In this document: in pieces, positions 18,670 through 24,932 of the stretch
Numbering within the stretch: the first letter of the stretch is position 1
How the letters are laid out: each line of letters opens with the position of its first letter
Assembly (NCBI GenBank): GCA_043798915.1
Contig: JAZDOG010000023.1
Location: forward strand, 1-27,392
DNA from: Pseudomonadota bacterium
GTDB lineage: Bacteria > UBA10199 > 2-02-FULL-44-16 > JAAZCA01
Direction: 5' to 3'
Length of the DNA: 27,392 nt
Notes under the pieces: generated by a model
Told to the model about the DNA's origin: nothing
The model's input: the letters and a program-made list of their open reading frames with translations, nothing else
Database searches by the model: none
Position numbers and translations under genes: made by a program

Positions 18670-21600
18670 TTATCCCCTCCGCCTGCGGGCGACCATCGGC
18701 ACGAGGCCGGCGAGCAGCGCCGCGAGCGAGATGATGCTTCCTGACGAGCCTCCCGCGCCTGCGACCAGCGAACAGCCATGGTCTGCCTGCGTCGCATGAT
18801 CGATGTTCGCCAGGTTGAAGTATCCGCCGCTGTACATCGCGTCCTTGTCATTCGTCCCGTCGAAGTTGGAATCCGGGAGCCTTGGATCAGTCTCGGCCCA
18901 GGTTGCATCCGCCTTCTGGTCGCGAACTCCGTTGCAGTTCATATCTTCGCCGGTTCCAGTGACGTTGCCGTCGGGCAGGCCGTCGCCGTCAGTGTCCGGG
19001 TTGTTGGCATCCGTGTCGGACGCTGTCAGCTTGCCGCCAAAGTCGGGTTGATGAATCTCGCCGAAGCTCCAGACCTTCGCGCCCGTGCTGTCGGTGATAT
19101 TCGACGGGCCATCCGGGATGCAGTCGCCATCCGTGTCGGCCTTGTTCGGATTCGTGCCGTATGCCTTCTCCATGCCGTCGTTCAGGCCGTCATGCTCCGT
19201 GTCCCCATCGAGCGGGTTCGTGTCGCCGCGGAGAGGCAGGACGGCGCAATCATGGTACATTGCCCACTGAATTTCCTCGCCATTGTGGAGGTTATCTCCG
19301 TCGGCGTCCTTCTGGCCGGCCGGAAGGCCGAGCTTCGTCTGGCACCAATCCGGGAGGCCGTCGCCGTCGCCATCGGTGCCGTTGCTCGTGTCGATGTCCG
19401 CACTCGTTGCGTTGGCGGGCTTGTCCTTCATCGTCTTCGGCGTCTTGCCGTCGCTCTGCATCTGGCCGCTGCCAGCGCAGCTCTGATCTTTGTTGAGGGC
19501 GCAGCCGATCTTCTCATCCTTGTCCCATACAGTATCGTTGTCGGCGTCGTGCATGCAGGGGTTGGAGTCGTACTGCCTGATGAAGCCTCCGGCGTACTCC
19601 TGCGAATCCAGGAGGCCGTCGCCATCGCTGTCGCCCGATCTCGGATTCGAGATGCTCGGCACGCCTACTCCCGCGGGCGGGGTCGTGATGTACCCTTTCT
19701 GTATGGCTCCGCCGGTTGCGCGCTTCGTCGCATCCCAGCTGAGCTCCGCGTTGTCGGCCAGGCCGTCGCCATCGGTGTCCTTCTCGGTCGGGTCAGTGTC
19801 GACGGTCACGGCGTTCGCGCAACCATCCTGACCCGTGATGTTGTCCTCTTTCCCGTTTGCGTCGCTCTGGCCGAGCTGGAACCCAGGCACGCCGTCGCGA
19901 TTTTCATCGCCGTCCATGATTGTATCGCCGTCCGTGTCCGGATCCTGCGGGTTCGTGTACACGCCCTTGCCGCTCTCCTGTTTGACCGCCTTCGCCTTCT
20001 CAAACTGGTCGTTCAGACTGTCGCCGTCTGTATCCTGCATCAGCGGATCGGTCTCAATCGTGGCCATGATATCGTCGGTGATGTAGCTCTTGATATGGCC
20101 GACCTTGTCGACGCTGCCGTTTCTGTTCACATCCTCCTGCGCATCGGTCAGTCCATCCCCGTCGCGGTCGAAGAAGCAGGCCAGCGTGCTGTTGTTGGCG
20201 GGGTTGACGTATATCTTGCGGACCTGATCGAGGCTGCTTCCGCAGCTGTAAGATGTCTTGCCCGCCACGAAGCCGTCGGTTGCTGACGTATTGCCCACCA
20301 TCGGGCAGACATCCTCGCCCTTGTAGCCCGGGGGCACCACGTTGTTCTTCCCGCGGCCGTCGATGAAGAGATCGCCGTCGCTGTCGGAGTTGTTCGGCTT
20401 CAAACCCGTCTCATTCAGCTTCGGATCGCACTTGCCGTTCGGACTCTCGATTATGTCCGGAATTCCGTCGCCGTCCGTGTCCGCCGCGAACTTTGCAATC
20501 TCGTCGCAGGGAAGCTCGAAGATGTCGGCTATGTTAGCGTCTTTGCCTTTGGTGCCGTCGGTGGCGTCCTTCTCGCCGACGACGAACTTTCCGTCCTTGT
20601 CCTGCAGGAGCGTCCTGATCTTTCCATCCATGCGCAATCCGTTCGGCTGCCCGTTCTGATCCCACACCACGTAGTCGGGGCTCACCGTGAAGAAGATCAT
20701 GCCGTCGCTGCACGGTGCGTCGCCCTTGCAATCATTGTTGAGGTCCGTGATCGTCGGGCACTTGTCCTGCTCACTTTTAGGATTGCACGATTTTGTCTGC
20801 AATCCTTTTCCCAGGATGTCGTCGTCTACGCCATCTGTGCCGCAGTCGCTGCCGCATGAAGGCCCGTCGCAGAATTGATCCCCATCCGTATCGCGCTTGA
20901 ACGGGTTGAGTTCGCCGTTCCCGGTCGCACTTGAATATTTCCCGTCGAAGTTTTCCGGGGAGGCGAGCGACGAGTTCTTGCAGGCCAGGACATGGATATC
21001 GCACTTGCTGGCGTCAAAACCGGCCGGGAGGTCCGTCAGGAGCTGCCCGCCCTCAAGCATCTTGGGATCGCTTCCGGTGCACATCATATACATGTTGTAC
21101 TGGATGCCGAGCGACTTGCCCTGGGGATCCGTCTGGTCGCAGGGTATGGGCCCGTTTTTGGCGACGTTCGGGTAGCGCTGGCCGGAAGAAACTGCGTTGT
21201 CGAACCAGTAGAGGTAGCTCGGCGTCGTCCAGTTGCCGTTGACCGAAACCATCGCGGCCAGCGCCTGGTTGCGATCCTCCATGCCGTCTATCTTGCCGTC
21301 GCCGTCGGAGTCGTTGTTGACCGCGTCGTAACAGATGTGGCTGGGGCTGCCACAATTCACCTGCGGCGCGCCTTTCACCGTATAGTGGTTCCAGGGCGTC
21401 ACACCGCCTGTAAATTTGGTATTGTCGCAAATCGCCGTTTTCGCCAGCTGGATGACGTTGGTCGTCTTGTCATACGTGAGGCAGCCCTTCGGAGGAAGCG
21501 CCTCGGCGCCGTCCGGGACGCCGTCGGTGTCGGTGTCGGGCTTATACCAGCAGGTCTCGCCGGGATCGCATGAGCAGTCCAGGTTTATATCCTCATCGTC

Positions 21601-23007
21601 ATCCTGGATGCTGTCGCCGTCGGTGTCAAATTTGGGATTGAACGCCTTCGGCCGCCTGCCAGTGGTGATGTTAATATTTGCCAGGCACTCGCGTATCGAC
21701 ACAAAGCCGGTCGATTTGATATGTTTTAACTTGCCGGCACCGCCGCTGCCGCCATTGCCGCCGCCGTTCCCCGCCGTGCCAGCCTCATGCAGGCCATCGT
21801 CGCCGCGCTCCCACGAGTTGCAGGGCCCGGGGCCGGATGAGGCATCCCTCGGTGGCATCATCGGGCGGCCGACCCTGCCATCTGTCCCCTCGGGAACGAG
21901 GGTGAACCGGCCGGCTGATTTGGGGATGTTGAAGGCGAAATAACCGGTGTCGCCCAGGTATTCGCCTGTGCCCGTCGTTTGGTTGGAACCCATCCCCATG
22001 TCGCCGCCATCGGGCATTGCGCCAACGTATCCGTAAAAACCGGTTCCGTTGTATATCTGCAGGCGCTTGACCTTGGTGCTGAACCCGAAATCGGCCTCCG
22101 AAGCGTCGCTTGCGGGAAGGTCCTTTGAAGACTCCACCACCCAGCCCCTCACGAATATCTTGTCCGGGTCTTCCGCTGGGAGGCCCACCTTCACGCACAC
22201 CTGCGTCTGTGACTTGCTGTAGAAAAACTTGTCGATGCTCCCTTCGATCAGGAGCCTGCCCGCGCCGGCAGGCGGGAGCTGAAGGCCGTCCGCGTCGGTG
22301 TCGTCGAGCGTCGTGCCGGCCGCCAGCGCCAGCGGCTGAAGGATGTTCCTGCTGCCGACAACGTTATCGGACTCATCGCCAAAGTTGATCGCAAACAGAC
22401 TCGCGCTCTTGATGTTGGTCGGCGCAGCGATGACATTGTTGATCGCATCTGTGGTGTTGCCGAAGCTGACGCCGTTATCGCCGCCTCTGGTAGTCACGTT
22501 TTCAATCCGGCCGCTGTCCTTGACCATGCAGACGGCATCATAGCCCGAAGGGACGCTGTTTATCGTCAAGTTCTTGACTGTGACGTACTGGCCGGAGATG
22601 AGGACCACGCACTTGGACTTGGCCTGCTTATTGGTGGCCACCAGAGCGGCATCAAGCACGACGCCGCCGCCGTCGATGACGTAGGGGTTAGCGGCGCTGG
22701 CGCCGAGCATATCCGCATAGAACGAGATGGGGCCCAGCATCTTGATCGACGGCACCTTGATGTTGATTCCCTTCTTGCAGCCGTAGAGGTTCGGGTCGCC
22801 ATGGTTTGCGACCGCAAACGCGGCATAGGGGAGAGTGAGGCCGCCGGTCGAACCGGCCATCGCCCAGACCTGGGACGTGACGTCGCAGTAGTCCGTCTGG
22901 ACCAGCGGCTGAACGCCGGCAGCATGGGCGCTGCGCCCGACTGCCGCGAGAGAAGCGACGGCTATCAGGACGCCTGCGATCACATTGAGAATCTTCGTGG
23001 TCTTCAT
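18670..23007 (-). CDS. Giant surface protein (1445 aa): beta-helix-like N-terminus, thrombospondin type-3-like DxDxDG repeats, MYXO-CTERM-like tail
   Basis: Signal peptide ending AHA-A and GGAGG RBS. About 18 D-[TSA]-D-x-D-x-x-x-D repeats with interspersed Cys, several preceded by ETDP/TNP. Tail GCSLVAGAGGSSGS-hydrophobic helix-RRRRG. Confidence 0.88.
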   Translation of the reverse strand: MKTTKILNVIAGVLIAVASLAAVGRSAHAAGVQPLVQTDYCDVTSQVWAMAGSTGGLTLPYAAFAVANHGDPNLYGCKKGINIKVPSIKMLGPISFYADMLGASAANPYVIDGGGVVLDAALVATNKQAKSKCVVLISGQYVTVKNLTINSVPSGYDAVCMVKDSGRIENVTTRGGDNGVSFGNTTDAINNVIAAPTNIKSASLFAINFGDESDNVVGSRNILQPLALAAGTTLDDTDADGLQLPPAGAGRLLIEGSIDKFFYSKSQTQVCVKVGLPAEDPDKIFVRGWVVESSKDLPASDASEADFGFSTKVKRLQIYNGTGFYGYVGAMPDGGDMGMGSNQTTGTGEYLGDTGYFAFNIPKSAGRFTLVPEGTDGRVGRPMMPPRDASSGPGPCNSWERGDDGLHEAGTAGNGGGNGGSGGAGKLKHIKSTGFVSIRECLANINITTGRRPKAFNPKFDTDGDSIQDDDEDINLDCSCDPGETCWYKPDTDTDGVPDGAEALPPKGCLTYDKTTNVIQLAKTAICDNTKFTGGVTPWNHYTVKGAPQVNCGSPSHICYDAVNNDSDGDGKIDGMEDRNQALAAMVSVNGNWTTPSYLYWFDNAVSSGQRYPNVAKNGPIPCDQTDPQGKSLGIQYNMYMMCTGSDPKMLEGGQLLTDLPAGFDASKCDIHVLACKNSSLASPENFDGKYSSATGNGELNPFKRDTDGDQFCDGPSCGSDCGTDGVDDDILGKGLQTKSCNPKSEQDKCPTITDLNNDCKGDAPCSDGMIFFTVSPDYVVWDQNGQPNGLRMDGKIRTLLQDKDGKFVVGEKDATDGTKGKDANIADIFELPCDEIAKFAADTDGDGIPDIIESPNGKCDPKLNETGLKPNNSDSDGDLFIDGRGKNNVVPPGYKGEDVCPMVGNTSATDGFVAGKTSYSCGSSLDQVRKIYVNPANNSTLACFFDRDGDGLTDAQEDVNRNGSVDKVGHIKSYITDDIMATIETDPLMQDTDGDSLNDQFEKAKAVKQESGKGVYTNPQDPDTDGDTIMDGDENRDGVPGFQLGQSDANGKEDNITGQDGCANAVTVDTDPTEKDTDGDGLADNAELSWDATKRATGGAIQKGYITTPPAGVGVPSISNPRSGDSDGDGLLDSQEYAGGFIRQYDSNPCMHDADNDTVWDKDEKIGCALNKDQSCAGSGQMQSDGKTPKTMKDKPANATSADIDTSNGTDGDGDGLPDWCQTKLGLPAGQKDADGDNLHNGEEIQWAMYHDCAVLPLRGDTNPLDGDTEHDGLNDGMEKAYGTNPNKADTDGDCIPDGPSNITDSTGAKVWSFGEIHQPDFGGKLTASDTDANNPDTDGDGLPDGNVTGTGEDMNCNGVRDQKADATWAETDPRLPDSNFDGTNDKDAMYSGGYFNLANIDHATQADHGCSLVAGAGGSSGSIISLAALLAGLVPMVARRRRG

Positions 23008-23052: not shown

Positions 23053-24633
23053 TCAGTCATTGGATGCATCATCCTCTGGAGGCGGCAACACCTCTGGTCC
23101 CGGTTTAGGAACTCTCCTGAATATCTTCGGCTCTTCGGCGGCACTCTTCGGTCCACCATCAAAATAGCCGCCGATGAGGAACCTCAGGCCGAAGCCGTAA
23201 AAAAAGCCCATTCCGGGAAGATCCGGCACCGCGCCGGCAGCGGCTGGCTGCGAATTGTAGAGCTGCGAACTCAAGCTGCCGCCGACATTAAAGAATGGCT
23301 CGATGATCAGATTGTCGCCAACTCTTACATCGAGAAAGATTTCGCCTTTGGGCGTAACGTCGAGATACGCGAACTGCTTGTTGCAGAGCATCTGGCTGTT
23401 GGCCGTCTTGATGGACGGACAGCTTTCCGATCCATCGGGAGATGTCACTTTGTCGCCGCTGCTGTAGGAATCCAGGCCGGTCCATCCGACGCCCAGCAGG
23501 CCGGCGACGCCGACCGCTCCCCAGCTGAACTGGTAGCTGAGCCTCAGCCCTATCTCGCCTCTTATGCTCATAACGTTTGCGGGCCTCGCGGTGATCGACT
23601 GATTCGGATCGACGGGATTGCTGGTGAAGTAGTAATCGAGCGCGGCGCCAACTCTGAAGCCAATGCCGAATCCGTTCGCCCTTCGTTTGTCGAGAACAAG
23701 GCCGGCGCCAATATTCACACCGCCATTGATCGAGGTCTGCAGACTATCGCTTGACAAGCCTCCGCCGCTGCCGTCGCACAGGCCCGTATCCTGGCAGAAT
23801 TTGCTGCCGTCTGTGGTGGTGGTATCCCCTCCAACCTGCTGATGGTTGCGATCACTGCCCAGAGAGCGATTGCCGCCGCCGACGTCGATATATCCGCCCA
23901 CAAAGGTGCTGTTTTCATGTGCGTCGACCTCTTTCGGCGGAACATGGAATTTTTTGAAGACGTCCATGTATTTTTTTTGACTAATGCCATTGTCACGCAG
24001 TTCCTTCCTGACTGATTTCGGGAGTTCTTCCCAGCTGACCATCTGTTCTTTATCTGCGAACTCCGCCCTCGCTCTCTTCTCGCTCATGTCATCAGGCCGA
24101 TTGGCTTTTTCAGCCAGGGCCATGTTGATTATCTCTATTATAGACGCCCTGTTCTTCTCCATACTGGACGCCTGAACTTCGGATTTTGATCCTGTCATTG
24201 TTATTTCCGGGCGCCCGCTTCCGATCTCGTCATCCGACCCTTCTTCGTCTTCTGCCTCCGGCTTCCTGCCGTGAGACACCTTTGGCCCTTTTTGTCCTTT
24301 TGGAGCGGGCTTGGATCCTTCATCTTCAGCAGGAGGGGGATAGGCAGCCTTAATTTTACCCGCATCGCCTGATTCGATCGCCTTGAGGCGCGCAAATTGC
24401 GCCTCGACTTTGGCCTTTGTTATCACCGGATCGGCCGCATCCGGCAGCCGGGTCACGTGATTAGCCTTGCAGGAAGCCACCTTTGCCGGTGTCGTCTGCT
24501 TTGCGCAGGCAGATTTAACAGCCGTCTCATAATCGGTCGCGTCTTTCTGGCAACTGGCGACATTTTCAGGAGAAAGTTTTCTATTCTCGCAATCGAGCCT
24601 GATGCCCGTGATCCCTCTGCCTGCCGCTATCAT
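23053..24633 (-). CDS. Hypothetical protein (526 aa): charged/Cys-containing N-terminal half and predicted C-terminal beta-barrel; no signal peptide
   Basis: ATG 24633 preceded by AAGGAGG. About eight Gly/aromatic amphipathic strands in the C-terminal half (e.g. GFGIGFRVGAALDYYF, IRGEIGLRLSYQF, FFYGFGLRFLIGGYF). Confidence 0.7.
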   Translation of the reverse strand: MIAAGRGITGIRLDCENRKLSPENVASCQKDATDYETAVKSACAKQTTPAKVASCKANHVTRLPDAADPVITKAKVEAQFARLKAIESGDAGKIKAAYPPPAEDEGSKPAPKGQKGPKVSHGRKPEAEDEEGSDDEIGSGRPEITMTGSKSEVQASSMEKNRASIIEIINMALAEKANRPDDMSEKRARAEFADKEQMVSWEELPKSVRKELRDNGISQKKYMDVFKKFHVPPKEVDAHENSTFVGGYIDVGGGNRSLGSDRNHQQVGGDTTTTDGSKFCQDTGLCDGSGGGLSSDSLQTSINGGVNIGAGLVLDKRRANGFGIGFRVGAALDYYFTSNPVDPNQSITARPANVMSIRGEIGLRLSYQFSWGAVGVAGLLGVGWTGLDSYSSGDKVTSPDGSESCPSIKTANSQMLCNKQFAYLDVTPKGEIFLDVRVGDNLIIEPFFNVGGSLSSQLYNSQPAAAGAVPDLPGMGFFYGFGLRFLIGGYFDGGPKSAAEEPKIFRRVPKPGPEVLPPPEDDASND

Positions 24634-24703
24634 AATGCCTCCTTGCCTTCTCCCCCGTGCCTTCTGGTCTGATGATTCTACTCCGTTTTCCTCTCCATCC
24701 TCA

Positions 24704-24730
24704 TTATCGGGTGATTTTTTGAAAAGTTGC
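24704..24730 (-). promoter_or_regulatory. Sigma28 (FliA)-like promoter
   Basis: Minus strand GCAACTTT-N11-CCCGATAA versus consensus TAAAGTTT-N11-GCCGATAA: -10 box 7/8, -35 box 5/8, exact spacing. Confidence 0.5.
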
Positions 24731-24932
24731 GTGGTTTTTGAGGGGATTTGTTTCGCCCCGCCCGCCCCAACCCAAAAAGGCATTATAATTCAATTAGTTG
24801 AATACACTAATAGGCACACCAAAAAACAGGCAGAAAATTTTTTTAAAATACGTTTTTTCCCTCTGCGTGTATTCAGGTGTAAGGCTGAAAAATCCTTGAA
24901 GGCCGGCACCCGCCATGATAGGAGCACGCACT

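Follow-up and report, generated by a model that had tools for sequence, protein, structure and literature searches.

Outer-membrane beta-barrel proteins are taken to need the Sec pathway to cross the inner membrane and the BAM machinery for insertion. The gene analysed here encodes a protein, P0001, that appears to depart from this rule. It lies on the minus strand of a stretch of 27,392 nucleotides (nt) from a Pseudomonadota bacterium of the GTDB lineage UBA10199 (assembly GCA_043798915.1, contig JAZDOG010000023.1; the whole stretch is called the window below). P0001 has no Sec leader, is probably a membrane barrel and stands behind a promoter of the sigma28 (FliA) type. The sigma factor that most likely reads this promoter is encoded within the gene cluster of what appears to be a non-flagellar type III secretion system (T3SS).

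Sigma28 promoters and non-flagellar T3SSs are each known from several bacteria. The class-3 flagellar promoters of Escherichia coli and Salmonella, which belong to sigma28 (FliA), follow the consensus TAAAGTTT-N11-GCCGATAA. In Campylobacter jejuni, sigma28-dependent non-flagellar proteins (Feds, FspA and CiaI) are exported by the flagellar T3SS. In the attack phase of Bdellovibrio bacteriovorus, FliA is associated with a sigma28-like sequence, TTAAG-N16-CCGATA, in 92 of 140 promoters, many of them belonging to non-flagellar genes, and its targets include surface and uncharacterised proteins (PMC3627812). In Chlamydia trachomatis, ChIP-seq of sigma28 found only two chlamydial targets, hctB and tsp (PMC12282069). 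The 'Myxo' T3SS of the Myxococcales has neither motility parts nor a secretin of its own, is inherited vertically over the whole lineage and, it has been argued, needs no contact with a host for protein translocation (Abby and Rocha, 2012; PMC3459982). The words 'sigma' and 'FliA' do not occur in the text of the latter paper. A literature search on T3SS, outer membrane, beta-barrel and missing signal peptide found no description of a leaderless barrel under a T3SS sigma factor.

The gene of P0001 and the elements that precede it are the following:

24683..24740, minus strand: 58-nt block conserved with the homologous locus L017, comprising the promoter and the first ~21 nt past the −10 box, with a GGA-rich leader start
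24704..24730, minus strand: sigma28-type promoter GCAACTTT-N11-CCCGATAA, with −35 box GCAACTTT at 24730-24723, −10 box CCCGATAA at 24711-24704 and an 11-nt spacer
24638..24644, minus strand: ribosome-binding site AAGGAGG, four bases ahead of the ATG at 24633, read off the sequence
23053..24633, minus strand: coding sequence of the leaderless protein P0001, 526 amino acids (aa), stop codon included, start kept in both homologues

The public protein record for P0001 begins at the ATG at 24633. The longest minus-strand open reading frame (ORF) runs over 23053-24783 and would give 576 aa; a TGA lies three codons ahead of its first ATG. No Sec leader follows either candidate start, as judged by eye and by hydropathy (the maximum 11-residue Kyte-Doolittle mean is 1.1), and the upstream extension (MPFWVG...RRQGG) contains no hydrophobic stretch. 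An exhaustive phmmer search of 1.84 billion representatives returned three proteins at E ≤0.001: P0001 itself, P0002 (485 aa, E 1.6e-12, 27% identity to P0001) and P0003 (422 aa, E 4.3e-8, 29% identity). All three are singleton clusters encoded on short contigs, P0002 on a Logan contig of 1911 nt and P0003 on a metagenome contig of 2166 nt (L017), and the two homologues likewise lack a Sec leader. All three members begin MI[A/S]AG, with MISAGE in P0002 and P0003. In their alignment M1, I2, A4 and G5 are invariant, as are four cysteines in the first 55 residues. Because all three proteins begin at the same conserved residues without a leader, the leaderless start reads as a family trait and not as damage to the window copy; the gene is intact.

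The family is small. A word-index search with P0001 and with the three-row alignment matched only P0001 itself, no homologue was found in the genomes of 60 relatives (best E 0.013), and a profile search of 93 genomes of the class matched only P0001's own. P0001 has no match in Pfam or NCBIfam. At Pfam E-values up to 10, P0001 and P0003 match no family and P0002 has only a noise match (DUF5930, E 0.2).

The promoter ends 70 nt ahead of the ATG. Its pattern has one match in the window and none in 100 shuffles of the window, and its −10 box agrees with GCCGATAA at 7 of 8 bases. L017 was the sole homologous locus compared for the promoter. It has the same boxes at the same spacing ahead of the gene of P0003, and the spacer sequence between them is not conserved. 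The 58-nt block is the best-conserved part of the locus, with 49 of 58 positions identical; the codon-aligned coding regions agree at 471 of 1221 positions (38.6%) and at 31 of 58 in their best 58-nt window. The transcript is expected to start near 24697. A translated in-frame peptide upstream of the gene (…TQLF..SPDN.DGEENG…) was considered and rejected: it appears conserved in both loci because the conserved bases are promoter boxes, not coding sequence, and the spacer between them varies. The GGA-rich leader start, with three or four GGA in ~20 nt (24683-24703 in the window, 700-720 in L017), differs at one base between the two loci, which is more similarity than is general in the promoter family. 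A regulator could bind here; sites of the CsrA type are rich in GGA. On the plus strand, a terminator-like hairpin and T-run is called exactly over the −10 box (24696-24713), which may be chance, given 7 such sites in the region against 6.3 expected.

This promoter is one of a family. A loose pattern matches 29 sites in the 2.34-Mb genome, and 27 of these share cACGCAACTTT, a spacer of 11 nt (22 sites) or 12 nt (5 sites), and GCCGATAA. The −10 box is GCCGATAA in 26 of the 27 strict sites; the window site, CCCGATAA, differs at the first base. When at most one mismatch per box is allowed there are 51 sites, against none in a reversed-sequence control, and all 51 have a correctly oriented ORF downstream. 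Of 61 genomes of the class, 41 contain an exact 17-base pattern; this genome is among them and has the most sites (19); a control pattern had one match in all genomes together. The identity of the window site as a promoter and its membership in this regulon are thus highly probable. The regulon has about 27 to 51 promoters in the genome and is conserved across the class. About 6 nt past the −10 box the sites also carry T-G-G-purine-purine-G (+7 to +12; about 24692-24697 in the window), with counts over the 27 sites of 17 for T, 20 and 15 for the two Gs and 16 for A at the purine. This pattern may be the sign of a conserved start region, or else serve as a second element for recognition.

The first genes behind these promoters are diverse. 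Among 20 scanned with Pfam, 14 have no family and one has a weak sub-threshold match; the other five encode HAMP-GAF-GGDEF, TPR, TSP3, ResIII helicase-like and FGE-sulfatase domain proteins. In the whole set of 51 first genes, a start of the form M-x-[AGSTN]-[AG]-G is seen in 11, a hydrophobic leader in another 11 and neither feature in 29. One of the promoter-driven genes in the same order, P0004 (L049:1617-2852, genome G016; 411 aa), is built like P0001, with an MFSGGK start, a Cys-rich helical part, an acidic linker and a beta-rich end. Its sequence relation to P0001 is not significant by hhalign (probability 3.7%, E 0.012), and it is counted as an analogue only.

The genome, in 105 contigs and 97% complete, offers a candidate for the sigma factor. 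On contig C20, a row of genes begins with an 848-aa unknown, two small unknowns, a 158-aa TPR protein, an SctJ-like lipoprotein and a 154-aa unknown. It continues with a thioredoxin/TPR protein, a sigma factor of 309 aa, a 164-aa unknown, FliG-like, FliH/SctL and FliI/SctN, and ends with YscO-like, FliK-like, FliM-like, FliN, FliO, FliP/SctR, FliQ/SctS and SctT-like. Several components exceed their NCBIfam cut-offs: SctV with 791.8 bits (cut-off 692.25), SctR with 228.8 (208.6) and SctN with 623.5 (604.75), the last also passing FliI_clade2 (645.3 against 629.8). Flagellin (Flagellin_N), Flg_bb_rod and FlgEFG have no match in the genome, whereas control genomes did match. On this gene content the machine is a non-flagellar T3SS, not a flagellum. 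The T3SS secretin SctC was not found: four secretin genes score 114.5, 147.7, 111.2 and 40 bits against a cut-off of 238.45, are better matched by PilQ or GspD, and are all encoded away from the T3SS contigs. No needle gene was recognised in the genome.

The best NCBIfam family for the C20 sigma factor is FliA/WhiG, at 130-131 bits; the next, SigB/F/G, scores 80. Of 61 genomes of the class, 60 have its orthologue (50-79% identity), the sole miss being a genome that is 78% complete. FliP/SctR is present in all 61, and the sigma gene lies on the FliP/SctR contig, 7-10 kb off, wherever coordinates were compared. The family of the C20 factor, the kind of −10 box and this co-occurrence make it the most likely reader of the promoter family. 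An earlier note, drawn from the bare sequence, had speculated on a non-Sec route of export and pointed to sigma28-controlled flagellar substrates. The link to a non-Sec export machine is stronger than that note could show: the promoter is one of 27 to 51 sites, and the sigma gene is located within a T3SS cluster. The flagellum itself drops out, as no flagellin, rod or hook gene was found. That note had named three outcomes that would refute it, namely no predicted membrane barrel, homologues with signal peptides, or a genome lacking sigma28. None of them came about: a barrel of membrane type is predicted, both homologues are leaderless and share the same start residues, and the genome encodes a FliA/WhiG-like factor, albeit one below its family cut-off.

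Other genes of the machine and its surroundings deserve mention. The gate genes are scattered, with SctV alone directly after secA (C42:16881-19058, L012) and FlhB/SctU alone elsewhere (C13:18369-19508, L016). Beside the T3SS cluster on C20 (L040:6465-10770, genome G000) lie a Ser/Thr kinase with six PEGA domains and a sigma54 activator with an FHA / YscD-cytoplasmic-like N-terminal domain, which are candidate upstream regulators of the machine. A complex prediction for residues 1-110 of P0001 with the 158-aa TPR protein next to SctJ gave a score of 0.00 and a mark of 0.32, which is evidence neither way.

The protein itself is divided into the following parts:

24619..24633, minus strand: MIAAG, a putative export tag of the form M-x-small-[AG]-G, from the invariant residues of the family and the motif count
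24343..24615, minus strand: helical N-terminal domain, residues 7-97, with conserved Cys 15, 28, 43 and 55 (predicted local distance difference test, pLDDT, 72-85; alignment)
24190..24342, minus strand: disordered charged linker, residues 98-148 (pLDDT 25-36)
23947..24189, minus strand: second helical domain, residues 149-229 (pLDDT 67-81), which only P0002 shares
23158..23916, minus strand: predicted 8-stranded OmpA/OmpX-like beta-barrel, residues 240-492 (AlphaFold2, Foldseek, ESM Atlas)
23056..23157, minus strand: Pro-rich acidic tail, residues 493-526, after the ...GLRF strand and missing in both homologues

The fold was modelled by AlphaFold2 with the three-row alignment; a single-sequence model was poor (pLDDT 41.9) and not usable. 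The model has eight strands at residues 240-252, 304-317, 322-336, 353-368, 372-387, 422-438, 442-458 and 478-492 (pLDDT about 55-74). These strands of 13-17 residues are joined by long loops (51, 16, 34 and 19 residues) that alternate with turns of 3-4 residues. Foldseek against the Protein Data Bank placed only outer-membrane barrels among the top matches (E 1.5e-4 to 6e-3). Target template-modelling (TM) scores were 0.58 for OmpA (1bxw, E 1.5e-4), 0.61 for OmpA-short, 0.62 for OmpX, 0.60 for Ail and 0.61 for NspA; OprG and OmpW were also among the top matches. In the ESM Atlas, the nearest clusters by features are OMP beta-barrel and PorT-like (0.93-0.94), and by structure OmpA-like and OMP_b-brl_2 clusters (TM 0.50-0.59); the Atlas held no look-alike for the N-terminal half of P0001. 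The strands alternate hydrophobic with Gly or small residues. The last one reads ...GFGLRFLIGG, after which come another 34 residues that close with PPPEDDASND; its G-F-G-L-R-F aligns with G-C-G-L-R-F-HNP of P0002 and the C-terminal ...S-Y-R-F of P0003, so that 41, three and no residues, respectively, follow the final F. On the model and the structural matches, a membrane barrel is fairly probable.

The layout of the predicted barrel bears on where it would reside. In resident outer-membrane proteins, termini and turns face the periplasm. Since the number of strands is even, both termini of P0001 lie on the short-turn face, and in the model the long Cys-paired loops are on the opposite face. 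The modelled layout is therefore what is expected when a resident outer-membrane protein is assembled from the periplasm, and it does not suit a hairpin inserting into a foreign membrane. The eight cysteines fall into four local pairs, none with the CxxC spacing of metal sites: 280/286 and 405/417 lie within two of the long loops, and the four of the N-terminal domain, 15/28/43/55, probably form two disulfides.

Downstream of P0001 lies a much larger gene:

18670..23007, minus strand: gene for a protein of 1445 aa that carries a Sec-type leader, calcium-binding repeats of TSP3 type and a Cys/hydrophobic/RRRRG tail

It is separated from the stop codon of P0001 by 45 nt, a gap in which no terminator-like or sigma70-like site was found, and is probably co-transcribed with it. 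The protein scores 22.8 bits with TSP3_bac (cut-off 25) and 92.8 bits with the CglD model (cut-off 400). The latter is far under its cut-off, and therefore CglD and the 1445-aa protein have only the repeats in common. The C-terminus (18670-18810, minus strand) consists of a Cys, ~25 small or hydrophobic residues and RRRRG. It looks like a C-terminal sorting tag of the MYXO-CTERM kind; a pattern search of the genome gave this tail a single time, and none of the NCBIfam models for sorting domains matched.

Every feature that the earlier note described in the gene is confirmed: a start without a signal peptide, a barrel-like C-terminal half of about eight strands (subject to a model of moderate quality), Cys-paired loops, a Pro/acidic tail, a FliA-like promoter 70 nt upstream and a large gene 45 nt downstream. 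Its remark that the 5' half is richer in AT also agrees with the base composition, as codons 1-234 have a GC content of 0.523, the rest of the gene, which encodes the barrel part, 0.578, and the whole window 0.597.

The flanking TPR-lipoprotein and SSB genes are kept in 12 of 12 relatives of the same family of bacteria. The space beside the TPR-lipoprotein gene holds different genes in the four loci read, and two of these loci again have a gene there with this type of promoter before it. One of the two, in another genome of the family (L065:4998-11788, G003), is a leaderless ORF of 2257 aa near the conserved TPR-lipoprotein gene. The core genes thus enclose a changeable spot in which P0001 sits, in agreement with the lower GC and the rarity of its gene, and cargo of the regulon seems to vary at this site.

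The shared N-terminus of the P0001 family recurs in other members of the regulon. The motif M-x-small-[AG]-G was counted at candidate starts that are backed by a Shine-Dalgarno sequence and have at least 80 codons left, those within 300 nt of a promoter being taken as near it. It is found at 10 of 55 such starts near promoters versus 43 of 8663 elsewhere, an odds ratio of 44.5. The carriers make up about seven unrelated families and include FGE-sulfatase proteins (MIGAGD...), a 2635-aa protein and an ORF cut off by the end of its contig after at least 884 aa (M-x-AGGEIKK...), small Cys-rich proteins and P0001. In genomes of the same order, promoter-driven genes begin MWSGG, MFSGGK, MISGG and MFSGGQ. 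The motif is real, if limited in range and frequency, and may be an export tag. Leaderless FGE-sulfatase-domain paralogues with a start of MIGAG[D/E] or MTGAGE number at least four (G000:C102:7251-8117, C92, C74 and C20), and three of them stand behind this promoter type; enzymes of the FGE-sulfatase family are usually exported.

A mechanism can be proposed from these elements. The gene would be transcribed from the sigma28-type promoter, probably jointly with that of the 1445-aa TSP3-repeat surface protein, and the C20 FliA/WhiG-like sigma factor would read the promoter. P0001, lacking a Sec leader, would cross the inner membrane via the type III export gate, with the N-terminal motif perhaps acting as export signal. 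Because no secretin or needle was recognised, release into the periplasm is proposed, where the disulfides would form and BAM would insert the barrel into the cell's own outer membrane. There it may anchor or partner the co-expressed TSP3 protein. This whole chain, from a leaderless envelope protein of the regulon through export by the T3SS gate to the cell's own outer membrane, is put at somewhat less than an even chance, and passage through the T3SS, taken by itself, is likewise tentative. A broader version, in which a secretin-less T3SS with its own sigma28-like factor serves as a second, Sec-independent route of envelope building that delivers tagged leaderless proteins to the periplasm, among them an OmpA-like barrel inserted by BAM, is rather unlikely; if true, this would be the first outer-membrane barrel known to bypass Sec.

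Several points weigh against the proposed chain. The regulon is mixed, as 11 of 51 first genes encode Sec-type leaders and several products look cytoplasmic (GGDEF/GAF/HAMP, ResIII helicase-like); membership therefore does not imply export by the T3SS. Paralogues swell the number of motif carriers (MIGAG at three sites, M-x-AGGEIKK at two), and the strict motif is present at only 2 of 58 relatives' loci with an ORF and at none of 20 loci from other families of the class. Known T3SS signals, moreover, are not conserved motifs. The idea that motif-bearing proteins are richer in cysteine was rejected, with 2.0 Cys in the first 60 residues against 1.67 in the rest, no clear difference. The three-row AlphaFold2 model is only moderate (mean pLDDT 53, predicted TM score 0.31), and no hidden Markov model (HMM) of a barrel family in Pfam or NCBIfam matched, OmpA_membrane (PF01389), OMP_b-brl (PF13505) and the like included. 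The C20 sigma factor is under the FliA/WhiG cut-off (about 130 against 189.6 bits). A secretin or needle gene could have diverged beyond detection or sit in a part of the genome that was not assembled. Export, membrane location, transcription and sigma specificity are all deduced from sequence and model.

The alternative that survives best is that P0001 stays inside the cell as a cytoplasmic member of the regulon, its beta-rich domain being no membrane barrel. A protein without an export signal of known type, a moderate model without an HMM match and the cytoplasmic look of other regulon members would suit this explanation. It has to contend with Foldseek matches that are all outer-membrane barrels, with ESM Atlas clusters that agree, and with the alternation of hydrophobic and small residues along the strands. 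The final G-x-G-L-R-F, which in P0003 becomes a terminal ...YRF like the end signal of outer-membrane proteins, and the four local Cys pairs without metal-site spacing also speak for a barrel outside the cytoplasm, and the alternative is judged unlikely.

Export by some other leaderless route, be it an unrecognised Sec/SecA signal, vesicles or a dedicated system that reads the N-terminal motif, would account for a motif that is conserved, unlike known T3SS signals, and for a regulon that also holds ordinary Sec substrates. No candidate machine for it was identified, and the motif is strongly tied to promoters of the type assigned to the sigma factor of the T3SS cluster, which leaves such a route with a distinctly small share of the probability.

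The earlier note had speculated on a third possibility, in which the protein is secreted out of the cell and forms a pore in the membrane of prey or host. The missing leader, the T3SS-linked regulon and co-expression with a large adhesin-like protein fit this idea, as do TPR proteins of translocator-chaperone size in the T3SS cluster and a regulon of mostly fast-evolving orphan genes (14 of 20 without a Pfam family). The best structural matches of P0001, however, are all monomeric 8-stranded barrels, and barrels of this kind, such as OmpA and OmpX, have no open channel and are too narrow for a pore. The 51- and 34-residue loops, each with a Cys pair and opposite the termini, would need to pass through the target membrane. 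The T3SS translocators known are helical, and a secretin or needle gene was not recognised. With a fold that lacks a channel and long loops on the wrong side, a pore in prey is rated improbable, and this part of the earlier note lacks support. An artefact, in which an ordinary outer-membrane protein gene has lost its leader by frameshift, truncation or a wrong start call, is very improbable: small barrel proteins do normally carry leaders and the in-frame extension is open in both loci, but three independent sequences begin at the same conserved residues behind a strong ribosome-binding site, the extension has no hydrophobic stretch and is occupied in both loci by the conserved promoter, upstream of the expected transcript start, and in the 130 nt of intergenic space that are left the sole ORF has 40 codons, no leader-like sequence and no join to the gene.

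With export through the type III gate to the cell's own outer membrane retained as the proposal, the locus gains a wider meaning. A conserved leaderless barrel wired to the sigma factor of a T3SS would be a concrete exception to the rule of Sec plus BAM, and one that is open to test. The same data point to a whole uncultured class with small genomes that has a non-flagellar T3SS with a built-in sigma28-like factor, which probably drives dozens of promoters, mostly before orphan, fast-changing genes. The shared N-terminal motif could be the first sequence-defined signal of T3SS type. For organisms that cannot be grown, the yield is a list of candidate substrates and a promoter/sigma pair that can be tested in a surrogate host.

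Set beside known systems, P0001 shares with the N-terminal domain of OmpA and with OmpX, NspA and Ail (1bxw, 1qj9, 1p4t, 3qra) eight antiparallel predicted strands, the loops on one face being long and the turns on the opposite face short. It differs from them in having no detectable sequence relation (6-11% identity, no HMM match) and no Sec leader, in the ~235 residues of helical domains that come first and in the 34-residue tail that comes last. Its promoter family resembles the class-3 flagellar promoters of E. coli and Salmonella in the −10 box (identical in 26 of 27 strict sites) and in the 11-nt spacer (22 of 27), and departs from them in the −35 sequence cACGCAACTTT, in T-G-G-purine after the −10 box and in its non-flagellar target genes. 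As with Feds, FspA and CiaI of Campylobacter, leaderless proteins that are not part of the machine stand under sigma28. Those proteins leave via a complete flagellum, are soluble, and none is a barrel of outer-membrane type; for P0001, export via a type III gate is proposed only. Like the non-flagellated Chlamydia trachomatis, this organism combines a sigma28-like factor with a non-flagellar T3SS, with 27 to 51 sites in place of two targets (PMC12282069). The regulon recalls that of Bdellovibrio, in which a flagellar-type sigma factor was taken over as a global regulator. Bdellovibrio is flagellated and FliA still runs its flagellum, whereas here no flagellin, rod or hook gene was found, the sigma gene sits in a non-flagellar T3SS cluster and the −35 box is GCAACTTT (PMC3627812). 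The machine is reminiscent of the 'Myxo' T3SS, a machine without motility parts or a secretin of its own that is kept across a lineage (PMC3459982); the 'Myxo' system belongs to another lineage, and in the C20 cluster FliG-, FliM- and FliO-like genes remain.

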